Virus record (IMG/VR): IMGVR_UViG_3300032303_001800
Span: 14,431-78,430 of that record
DNA: 64,000 nt
Direction: 5' to 3' (one strand)
Source of the DNA: a virus
Taxonomy: Duplodnaviria > Caudoviricetes
Shown: positions 4,553 to 9,161 of the stretch, in pieces
How the letters are laid out: each line of letters begins with the position of its first letter
How positions within the stretch are numbered: the first letter of the stretch is position 1
Program-made: the position numbers and the translations under genes
Notes under the pieces: generated by a model
What the model was told of the DNA's origin: nothing
What the model saw: only the letters and a program-made list of their open reading frames with translations
Databases searched by the model: none

Positions 4553-4760
4553 TCCTTTGCGATAGCAAAGACCCAATAACCCAAATTTTAAGAAAAATTT
4601 TTGATGCGCCGTTGGCGCGCGGGCAAAAAATTTTTTAGGCCTATGCCCAGAATTTTTTTAGGTGTTTCTACTGTTATGAACAAATGTTCAGAGGGGCCCT
4701 TAAATAAATAGAATGTGTCTTGCGTATTTTGGCAAAGCAGGTCAAACTAGACAGAAAGTT

Positions 4761-5033: not shown

Positions 5034-5121
5034 TGGAGGAAGTGGAGGGATTCGAACCCCCGGAGGCTCTCACCTCTCCTGTTTTCAAGACAGGTACCAT
5101 AAACCGCTCGGTCACACTTCC
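5034..5121 (-). tRNA. tRNA-Ser(UGA)
   Basis: Cloverleaf read by hand: GGAAGTG/CACTTCC acceptor, CCTGT-CT TGA AA-ACAGG anticodon arm, long variable arm, TTCGAAT T-loop, encoded CCA. Confidence 0.92.
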
Positions 5122-5126
5122 GTTAG

Positions 5127-5193
5127 CGCAGGCGGTAGGACTTGCACCCACACCGAGACCCGAAGGTCCCTGCTACTTTTACACCACGCCTGC
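5127..5193 (-). ncRNA. Anticodon-less tRNA-like RNA
   Basis: GCAGGCG/CGCCTGC acceptor stem, D-like TGGTGTAAAAGTAGCA, GGGACC-TTCG-GGTCTC hairpin in place of the anticodon arm, GTGGG-TGCAAGT-CCTAC T arm; packed between two tRNAs. Confidence 0.7.
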
Positions 5194-5194
5194 T

Positions 5195-5280
5195 TGGTTG
5201 CACGAGAGGGATTCGAACCCCCGAACTCAAAAGAGGGATGGTTTACAGCCATCAGCGTTTGACCACTTCGCTATCGTGCA
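5195..5280 (-). tRNA. tRNA-Tyr(GUA)
   Basis: TGCACGA/TCGTGCA acceptor, GATGG-CT GTA AA-CCATC, long variable arm, encoded CCA. Confidence 0.92.
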
Positions 5281-5414
5281 ATGTTGAGGGCCCCAGGCGT
5301 ATCGCAATTTTCCCTAGAGCCATTCCCGCACTCATATGATTCGCGTTATCATACAAAGTACACGTACCCCCGTTGTACACCGGGCGGTACGTTTAAATTA
5401 CGACGGGTATCAGA

Positions 5415-6059: not shown

Positions 6060-6069
6060 AATTTCCTTG

Positions 6070-6141
6070 CTGCTCGGGAGGGACTCGAACCTTCAACCTT
6101 TGCATTAACAGTGCACTACTCTGCCATTGAGTTACCGAGCA
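6070..6141 (-). tRNA. tRNA-Asn(GUU)
   Basis: TGCTCGG/CCGAGCA acceptor, CT GTT AA anticodon loop, TTCGAGT T-loop; CCA not encoded. Confidence 0.88.
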
Positions 6142-6513: not shown

Positions 6514-6542
6514 AGTGTACAGCATCACATGCAACCTGTCAA
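6514..6542 (-). promoter_or_regulatory. Strong leftward promoter of the tRNA/Dps operon
   Basis: TTGACA-17nt-TACACT on the minus strand. Confidence 0.75.
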
Positions 6543-6550
6543 GAGTTACA

Positions 6551-6688
6551 GCAGAATTTTCTGTAGATGATATGTAGTATTAGTTAATATATATTATTAT
6601 ATATAGGGTGGTAACTGGCTGCCACCCCAAAGTTTCAAGAGAAACGCCCATTTACCCTGGTCAAATACCTGGCAACTGGCTGCCACCC
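6551..6688 (-). repeat. Non-coding iteron plus AT-rich element, homologous to the interior of the initiator gene
   Basis: GGGTGGCAGCCAGTT(A/G)CCA at 6609-6627 and 6670-6688 (minus strand); AT-rich tract at 6565-6605; GCAGAA-A/T-TTCTG palindrome at 6551-6564. Confidence 0.85.
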
Positions 6689-8897: not shown

Positions 8898-9161
8898 ATG
8901 TCTGAAGAATGGGATAAAAGTTTTGAGGAACTCGTTGCCAAAATTAATGGTGATGACCCCGAAAAGTCCGCTCAGGATAATGCTCTGAGGGAAGAAGAAA
9001 TTGCCTTCAACCGTTTGGGCGTAATTCTTTCTCTTGAGAAGGAAAAGTCTCAGATTACCTATCTGCAGGTTTTGGCCTCGTTGCAAAAAACATCCTCCCG
9101 CGTTATTGCGGTTGTAGGGGTTCTTTCAGTTATGTGGTCTTTTTACTTCTGGTTGTCATAA
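8898..9161 (+). CDS. Hypothetical protein with a C-terminal TM helix
   Basis: ORF track; stop overlaps the terL start. Confidence 0.7.
   Translation: MSEEWDKSFEELVAKINGDDPEKSAQDNALREEEIAFNRLGVILSLEKEKSQITYLQVLASLQKTSSRVIAVVGVLSVMWSFYFWLS

Follow-up and report, generated by a model that had tools for sequence, protein, structure and literature searches.

The non-proteinogenic glycine tRNAs of the staphylococcal cell wall are complete tRNAs that carry both the anticodon and the identity elements of glycine, and in them GUGC replaces GUUC and the D loop lacks GG. In phage T4, the tRNA cluster includes the stable RNAs rnaC and rnaD (species 1 and 2), the first with a canonical T arm near its 3' end, and their function is to our knowledge still unknown. 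RNase P and the CCA-adding enzyme read the acceptor, T-arm and elbow half of a tRNA and not its anticodon arm, and the anticodon is not read by seryl-tRNA synthetase. In Bacillus cereus, the tRNA-like gene tRNA-Other, a predicted pseudo-tRNA, is reported to have no translation function and yet a cellular effect (PMC3399842). Phage tRNAs, finally, are known counter-measures against tRNA-directed defences (PMC10264068, PMC11464382). Here we analyze an element in a phage tRNA array that shares features with each of these systems and carries no anticodon.

The locus and its neighboring genes

The virus record, IMGVR_UViG_3300032303_001800, is a complete genome of 78,430 bp with direct terminal repeats, and the window, i.e., the whole stretch of 64,000 nucleotides analyzed here, corresponds to its bases 14431-78430. 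This freshwater phage is a myovirus, in which PHROGs recognizes a large terminase and a portal protein as well as a major head protein and a tail sheath. Three tRNA genes were detected in the window by ARAGORN and Rfam, all on the minus strand: Asn(GUU), Tyr(GUA) and Ser(UGA). A first-pass annotation had reported a 67-nt element between tRNA-Tyr, 1 nt away, and tRNA-Ser, which we locate at 5193-5127 on the minus strand, in the following setting:

6514-6542, minus strand: promoter-like site upstream of ORF109 (TTGACA, 17 nt, TACACT), a consensus match only
6069-6141, minus strand: tRNA-Asn(GUU), first tRNA of the leftward transcription unit (ARAGORN, Rfam)
5195-5280, minus strand: tRNA-Tyr(GUA), CCA encoded, ending 1 nt before the element (ARAGORN, Rfam)
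5127-5193, minus strand: whole tRNA-like element, 67 nt (fold, shuffle test, Rfam score, copy count)
5034-5121, minus strand: tRNA-Ser(UGA), CCA encoded, beginning 5 nt past the element (ARAGORN, Rfam)
4636-4649, minus strand: terminator-like hairpin and T run downstream of ORF78, a consensus match only

Read leftward, the gene order is ORF109, tRNA-Asn, ORF62, a ferritin/Dps-like gene, a 133-nt spacer, tRNA-Tyr, the element, tRNA-Ser and ORF78, and further promoter-like sites (consensus matches only) occur around 6540-6600, at the start of this gene run. From the gene layout and the consensus promoter and terminator matches, we infer that the element sits inside an mRNA-tRNA operon and is probably co-transcribed with its neighbors. 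The 133-nt spacer (window 5281-5414) is non-coding and extends from the stop of the Dps-like gene to tRNA-Tyr. Pfam and PHROGs scans identified no gene for a tRNA-acting enzyme near the element, only the ferritin/Dps-like protein and a dNMP kinase. No relatives of ORF78, ORF62 or ORF261 were found at the loci of related phages identified via the Dps-like neighbor or TerL, and ORF78 was an orphan in a search of 5.8 billion proteins. On the plus strand, mechanically called ORFs overlap the element region.

Anatomy, predicted fold and detection of the element

The structural description given in the first-pass annotation was borne out in full. The acceptor stem is perfect over 7 bp (7/7 Watson-Crick pairs), the D-like arm lacks GG, the T arm joins a 5-bp stem to the reported TGCAAGT loop, and the anticodon arm is replaced by a 6-bp stem closed by cUUCGg, the closed form of which is thermodynamically dominant. 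In 5' to 3' order of the element, its parts are:

5187-5193, minus strand: acceptor stem 5' strand, GCAGGCG, 7/7 pairs with 5128-5134
5171-5183, minus strand: D-like arm, a 3-bp stem with 7-nt loop AAAAGUA, in which a single G stands where tRNAs with U55 have GG
5155-5170, minus strand: closed 6-bp hairpin with UUCG tetraloop at 5161-5164, an anticodon-arm replacement or a retained long variable arm
5152-5154, minus strand: 3-nt linker GGU, the variable-region equivalent, its final pyrimidine like position 48
5135-5151, minus strand: T arm, a 5-bp stem with loop UGCAAGU at 5140-5146, in which U54, C56, purine 57 and A58 are kept and position 55 is G
5128-5134, minus strand: acceptor stem 3' strand, followed by discriminator G at 5127 and then CUAAC, not CCA

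The D-like stem consists of U-A, G-C and U-G pairs, and the closed hairpin has six pairs, including one G-U, with C-G as the closing pair of its cUUCGg cap. All of the 21 predicted pairs are standard, i.e., no helix is broken by a mutation, and U8, G9, A14, A21, U54-A58, C56 and G53-C61 can be read in the element. At the elbow it retains the covariant A18/G55 combination, which decoding phage tRNAs also use. Unlike both flanking tRNAs, from which it is separated by spacers of 1 nt (Tyr) and 5 nt (Ser), the element has no encoded CCA. The cloverleaf-like fold is predicted at -27.3 kcal/mol, 1.1 kcal/mol from the minimum free energy (MFE) of -28.4 kcal/mol, and the MFE z-score is -2.35. When the 73-nt gap between tRNA-Tyr and tRNA-Ser was shuffled, a 7/7 acceptor stem, a 5/5 T stem and a UNCRA T loop were obtained together in 5 of 200,000 shuffles. 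The element occurs once in the 78,430-bp genome.

As anticipated by the first-pass annotation, which had expected ARAGORN to make no anticodon call, this program calls nothing at the element. The Rfam tRNA model (RF00005, gathering cut-off 29 bits) scores it at 30.2 bits, above the cut-off, only when the 73 nt are searched alone, compared with 56-61 bits for the flanking tRNAs; searches of the whole window and of a 451-nt segment with the same model miss it, as it is lost to filters in these larger searches. Held against the features that define a tRNA, the element has the 7-bp acceptor stem, the 5-bp T stem and the 7-nt T loop with U54, C56, R57 and A58. For the elbow contacts 18:55 and 19:56, judged from sequence, it offers a 3-bp D stem, a single loop G and the A/G55 combination. 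Instead of a 5-bp anticodon stem and a 7-nt loop with U33 and purine 37, it has the 6-bp stem and 4-nt UUCG. Because this defining anticodon-loop feature is absent, we do not file the element as a tRNA, despite its marginal pass in Rfam. Since the third arm is a closed and very stable hairpin, the sequence indicates that codon pairing is impossible. Taken together, the element is a real tRNA-derived body with an intact acceptor/T half, an elbow that appears intact from the sequence, and no anticodon.

Homolog searches and the arrays of related phages

Homologs were sought with exact and degenerate DNA patterns for the hairpin, for either half of the element and for both halves jointly. Across ~2.9 million viral contigs, a metagenome collection and 185,579 genomes, these scans identified no homolog with the same hairpin, and returned instead ordinary tRNAs, a tRNA-like lineage found at loci L041 and L237 (see below) and unrelated closed-arm bodies. 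By synteny, the element was absent from 25 loci with the Dps-like neighbor and 79 TerL loci, where the arrays are variable. Relatives with 61-85% TerL identity, mostly from freshwater metagenomes, carry tRNA arrays in the same place with a content that differs from phage to phage. Four contigs encode an identical Dps protein, and the same gap of 417 nt recurs on at least one of them.

In several relatives (L033, L078/L079 and L093), the slot after tRNA-Tyr holds a tRNA-Gln(UUG), at a distance of 1 nt in L033, and this gene is missing from the element's phage. Descent of the element from tRNA-Gln(UUG) is no more than possible, with the identity at only about half (~51% overall in a hand alignment). 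A rearranged tRNA-Gln gene was also seen: at L093:1180-1360 (minus strand), ~100 nt that carry a second, different tRNA-Gln(UUG) interrupt the anticodon loop of a tRNA-Gln(UUG) gene like that at L033:928-1001, with UGGAU repeated at both edges of the insertion. This arrangement has the look of one gene nested within another, or of a target-site duplication.

The best foreign match to a covariance model built from the element was a gene labeled tRNA-Ile(AAU) at L041/L098 (43.8 bits), followed by tRNA-Gln at ~35 bits. The closest bodies share ~80% of 38 comparable positions, and unrelated Leu, Trp and Thr tRNAs share 30-32 of the 38; the L041 gene was considered as an ortholog and dropped, as these unrelated tRNAs match the body equally. 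No near-identical intact parent tRNA was present in the collections searched. The first-pass annotation had named homologs with normal 7-nt anticodon loops and random decay as a finding that would speak against its reading. The most similar sequences are all tRNAs or tRNA-like sequences with 7-nt loops, but none of them is a demonstrable ortholog. Full-text literature searches turned up no account of phage tRNA-like genes with a sealed anticodon.

The UUCG hairpin and the origin of the shape

The extra-stable cUUCGg cap had been taken, in the first-pass annotation, to argue for design rather than decay. This argument loses its force when the variable arms of phage tRNAs are considered: tetraloop variable arms are found in 97 of 182 long-variable-arm phage tRNAs (Leu, Ser, Tyr), and the tetraloop is UUCG in 8 of these 97, including the tRNA-Tyr of relatives L085 and L090, i.e., UUCG caps are normal in this position. 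Variable-arm stems of at least 6 bp were observed in tRNA-Ser (26/76) and not in tRNA-Leu (0/61) or tRNA-Tyr (0/45). A long-arm tRNA without its anticodon arm would match the shape of the element exactly, so that this shape is possible without design, and since UUCG variable arms and Ser variable arms of at least 6 bp both exist, a single deletion could create it.

Origins were scored by comparing the element with long-arm tRNAs from which the anticodon arm had been removed (best scores 76 and 73) and with short-arm tRNAs lacking three loop bases (best score 72). Collapse of a short-arm tRNA's anticodon loop and loss of a long-arm tRNA's anticodon arm thus score alike, and either product is without an anticodon. 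In other closed-arm bodies, the caps are CUUU, UAGA, UUAU and UAUA; most of these are not of the extra-stable kinds, which suggests that an extra-stable cap is not the rule.

Covariation at the elbow

To place the GTGC sequence and the GG-less D loop of the element, which had been said in the first-pass annotation to recall the non-ribosomal tRNA-Gly, we used a survey of ~2.7 Mb of phage and metagenome loci comprising 1,562 ARAGORN tRNA calls. The elbow was evaluated in 1,019 distinct ARAGORN-called phage tRNA bodies with perfect acceptor and T stems and normal anticodon loops. In this set, the D loop is GG-less in 26 of the 33 bodies that have G55, and U55 is accompanied by GG in 922 of 956, GG being missing in 34 of the 956 U55 bodies. 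Bodies with G55 and normal anticodon loops span the isotypes Met, Lys, Tyr, Gly, Thr, Asp, Leu, Asn, Arg, Trp, His and Glu, and the tRNA-Met of the element's own phage group is also G55/GG-less. At L145, L153, L188 and L214, whole arrays are built with this elbow.

GUGC with a GG-less D loop is therefore an 18:55 elbow covariation that is common in decoding phage tRNAs, and the likeness to the cell-wall tRNA falls away as a functional clue, since the same pairing is seen in those 26 of 33 decoding tRNAs with G55. As a mark of non-ribosomal use, it is present in the element and is not diagnostic; as a covariation of decoding tRNAs, it argues for an intact elbow and not for work outside the ribosome. 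The glycine identity set, which we take to be U73, G1-C72, C2-G71, G3-C70 and a glycine anticodon, is not that of the element, in which the discriminator is G, pair 3:70 is A-U and the anticodon is absent. More broadly, this means that two textbook-looking marks are a common feature of the phage elbow and no sign of a non-ribosomal role.

Other unusual tRNA bodies in phage loci

Beyond the element, closed-arm bodies with perfect acceptor and T stems were found at L173, L175 (two), L192 and L270 (6200-6263), and bodies with odd loops at L092 (5-nt loop) and L084 (8-nt loop). A closed or missing third arm is a recurrent outcome in phage DNA.

Several unusual sequences cluster at L041. One is a 66-nt tRNA body (L041:2759-2824, minus strand) whose third arm has 5 bp and a CUUU cap and for which the sealed cloverleaf is itself the MFE structure; its position is 3 nt past the Ile(AAU)-labeled gene and before a tRNA with anticodon UCA. 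This body is identical in L098, L108, L261, L262 and L285 (six loci in total), and therefore provides no covariation information. Another is an 88-nt tRNA-like sequence (L041:3216-3303, minus strand) between tRNA-Met and tRNA-Tyr, which is predicted to fold with a terminal stem of 8-9 bp, has a T-like arm of 4 bp (loop UUCGAUU) and is called by neither ARAGORN nor Rfam. In phage arrays, tRNAs of ordinary length with anticodon UCA, which read UGA and are labeled SeC by ARAGORN, occur at L041:2661-2732 and L255:2385-2457; they could act as opal suppressors or signal that UGA is recoded.

A non-coding module of ~125 nt, ~90% identical between phages and with no Rfam match, is found at L041:2828-3050, L237:3409-3610 and L270:6460-6660, as well as in L261, L280 and others, directly upstream of a tRNA-like gene. 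This downstream gene has a 7-bp third arm with loop CUAAUUA or CUAACCA, and is labeled Ile(AAU) or Val(AAC) by ARAGORN. The body of this L041/L237 lineage is nearly identical between phages, and its apex differs by one two-sided and one one-sided pair change. At L270:6030-6265, ~140 nt of non-coding sequence separate a promoter-like site from a downstream 64-nt tRNA body with a truncated third arm. This body has its T arm and acceptor 3' strand in common with the Val(AAC) gene 320 nt downstream, and the unit as a whole may be a small RNA that ends in a tRNA-like signal for processing.

Two further designs were noted. Armless solitary bodies of 56-57 nt (L111:2354-2410, L137:1013-1069, L183:1640-1695) have perfect acceptor, D and T arms, with 9-10 nt replacing both the anticodon arm and the variable loop, and no tRNA genes were found beside them within the flanks retrieved. 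A D-armless tRNA-like design of 75-76 nt, missed by ARAGORN, is present at L120:1732-1807, L124:10605-10680, L138:5064-5138, L147:8849-8923 and 8934-9009, and L165:9245-9320. It has normal acceptor and T arms and a normal 7-nt anticodon loop (anticodons UAU, GAU, ACG, UCU), and its anticodon hairpin stands atop an extra stem, which is followed by a long single-stranded stretch with UUGG or CUGG.

Possible origins and roles of the element

The explanation we favor, to which we give about an even chance, is that the element derives from a tRNA, no longer decodes, is still cut out of its transcript as a tRNA would be, and is a leftover of array turnover rather than a purpose-built device. As the layout and consensus matches suggest, it would be transcribed with its neighbors on one leftward transcript, and would fold into a tRNA shape with a coaxial acceptor/T helix and a D-loop/T-loop elbow. 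Since RNase P and the CCA-adding enzyme recognize the acceptor/T/elbow half, the element should be excised like a tRNA. RNase P would cut its 5' end, which would also free the 3' end of tRNA-Tyr (CCA plus one base), and its own 3' end would be set by an RNase P cut at tRNA-Ser and subsequent exonucleolytic trimming. The body may have arisen when the anticodon loop of a short-variable-arm tRNA collapsed, or when a long-variable-arm tRNA lost its anticodon arm and kept a UUCG-capped variable arm. Between tightly packed tRNAs, the sole remaining constraint on it may be to stay foldable and excisable; deletion of the whole element would be equally good for the neighbors, so that being kept for processing is a weak selective reason. 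We favor this leftover reading because the element is a singleton in a hypervariable region, has a possible one-step origin and adjoins no gene for a tRNA-acting enzyme. It also accords with the arrays of relatives, which vary and hold rearrangement products (the split tRNA-Gln at L093, sealed and odd-loop bodies), and in which the slot past tRNA-Tyr is occupied by a normal tRNA-Gln(UUG) that the element's phage is missing. What fits it less well is that no close parent was found in the collections searched, that the hairpin cannot be derived by a single deletion from the closest bodies and that all 21 pairs are intact, a combination more in keeping with long-term structural selection than with recent decay.

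Such intactness leads to the main alternative, which we rate as distinctly possible though short of an even chance: a selected tRNA mimic which, after excision and CCA addition, would have a trans-acting job of its own exerted through its acceptor end or elbow. Candidate targets would be defence toxins that modify the CCA end or cut the acceptor, the CCA-adding enzyme, modification enzymes or EF-Tu, with the sealed arm keeping the RNA off the ribosome. Roles put forward in the first-pass annotation were a decoy, a synthetase or EF-Tu sink, an aminoacyl donor and a processing spacer. In favor of a mimic, all helices are intact and the elbow contacts appear so despite the lack of a close parent, and few tetraloops are as stable as its cap. 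Bodies with a sealed or missing third arm are found repeatedly on unrelated phage contigs (L041, L173, L175, L192, L270, L111, L137, L183), and the 7-bp third arm of the L041/L237 lineage has been kept through its two-sided and one-sided changes while the loop varied. Moreover, phage tRNAs counter tRNA-directed defences (PMC10264068, PMC11464382). However, the element is a singleton, and in the collections searched no diverged relative had the closed arm with compensatory changes; no gene for a tRNA-acting enzyme adjoins it; and anticodon nucleases, the best-known tRNA-directed defences, require the very loop that is missing. A broader form of the proposal, in which the element is a kept anticodon-less sponge or substitute substrate within a wider undescribed class of phage tRNA look-alikes, is one we regard as tentative and on the unlikely side.

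The remaining explanations appear far less probable. An aminoacyl carrier outside translation, in which the closed arm would act as a serine-type variable arm for charging by SerRS, or in which the element would donate glycine to the cell wall, seems very improbable. The 6-bp, 4-nt arm with its 3-nt tail does match, among long-arm phage tRNAs, only the variable arms of tRNA-Ser, and the discriminator is G. However, the acceptor stem and D arm are unlike those of any tRNA-Ser here or in relatives, with C-G at 2:71 and U-A at 11:24, where we take the tRNA-Ser identity set to be a long arm, G73, G2-C71 and C11-G24. By the identity rules that we assumed for other amino acids (G3-U70 for Ala, A73 for Leu and Tyr, G-1 for His, and U73 with G3-C70 for Gly), the element likewise has no G3-U70, A73, G-1, U73 or G3-C70, and its GUGC/GG-less feature is no non-ribosomal mark. 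A carrier is thus unlikely, as the major determinants for Ala, Ser, Leu and His, whose synthetases are anticodon-independent, and for Gly are missing. Slightly more doubtful again is that the element still decodes, its C-G closing pair opening to give a 6-nt loop, CUUCGG, equal to a tRNA-Arg(UCG) loop minus one base. A phage tRNA-Arg at L188 does have the loop CUUCGGA, and loops of 6 or 8 nt are called by ARAGORN in a few phage tRNAs. Nevertheless, the closed cUUCGg form dominates thermodynamically, the Rfam alignment shows a short D stem and no position 26, and ArgRS presumably requires A20 and the anticodon in a normal loop. Least credible of all is that the locus has no RNA gene and that the hairpin arose by chance, terminates transcription, is left over from an attachment site or belongs to a plus-strand feature. 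The overlapping plus-strand ORFs might suggest the last of these, but the same mechanically called ORFs run through true tRNA genes, and the shuffle test (5/200,000) speaks against any reading without an RNA. We rejected a terminator, as no U run follows the hairpin, and an attachment-site remnant, as the body spans an entire tRNA rather than a 3' fragment of one and the phage has direct terminal repeats.

Overall, the arguments for a designed function of the element are weakened, and it is a single, unconserved instance. It adds to a kind of phage tRNA look-alike that recurs and apparently has not been described. If selection maintains such bodies, phages produce RNAs with the shape of a tRNA that are excluded from decoding. 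This would hint at tRNA-directed interplay between host and phage via the acceptor end or elbow, not via the anticodon, and would widen the current view of phage tRNAs in counter-defence. If they are relics, they show the turnover of phage tRNA arrays, in which a dead tRNA between live ones may stay foldable and excisable. Relic or mimic alike, standard tRNA finders miss them.

Comparison with known systems

With canonical bacterial and phage tRNAs (RF00005), the element shares the acceptor and T arms, the predicted elbow contacts, U8, A14 and A21, the position in an array and spacers of 1-5 nt. It differs in having no 7-nt anticodon loop, no loop U33 or purine 37 and no position 26, in its 3-bp D stem, in its unencoded CCA where both neighbors encode it, and in the silence of ARAGORN. 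It resembles phage tRNA pseudogenes and internally deleted tRNA genes in belonging to a fast-changing array, in its loss of decoding, in being a singleton and in its possible deletion origin, but unlike these it has no intact parent among the sequences found and no disruptive mutation in its 21 pairs or its elbow. The staphylococcal cell-wall tRNA-Gly has GUGC for GUUC and a GG-less D loop in common with it; the element, however, lacks an anticodon and the Gly identity pairs. tRNA-Other of B. cereus is likewise reported to be a tRNA-like gene outside translation (PMC3399842), although bacterial, chromosomal and not in a phage array. By analogy, the nearest classical precedent appears to be rnaC and rnaD of phage T4: both are non-tRNA stable RNAs that directly follow tRNA-Arg in a tRNA cluster, with spacers of 1-6 nt (NC_000866 annotation), but at 139 and 119 nt they are not cloverleaf-shaped, share no sequence similarity with the element and have no 7-bp acceptor stem at their annotated ends.
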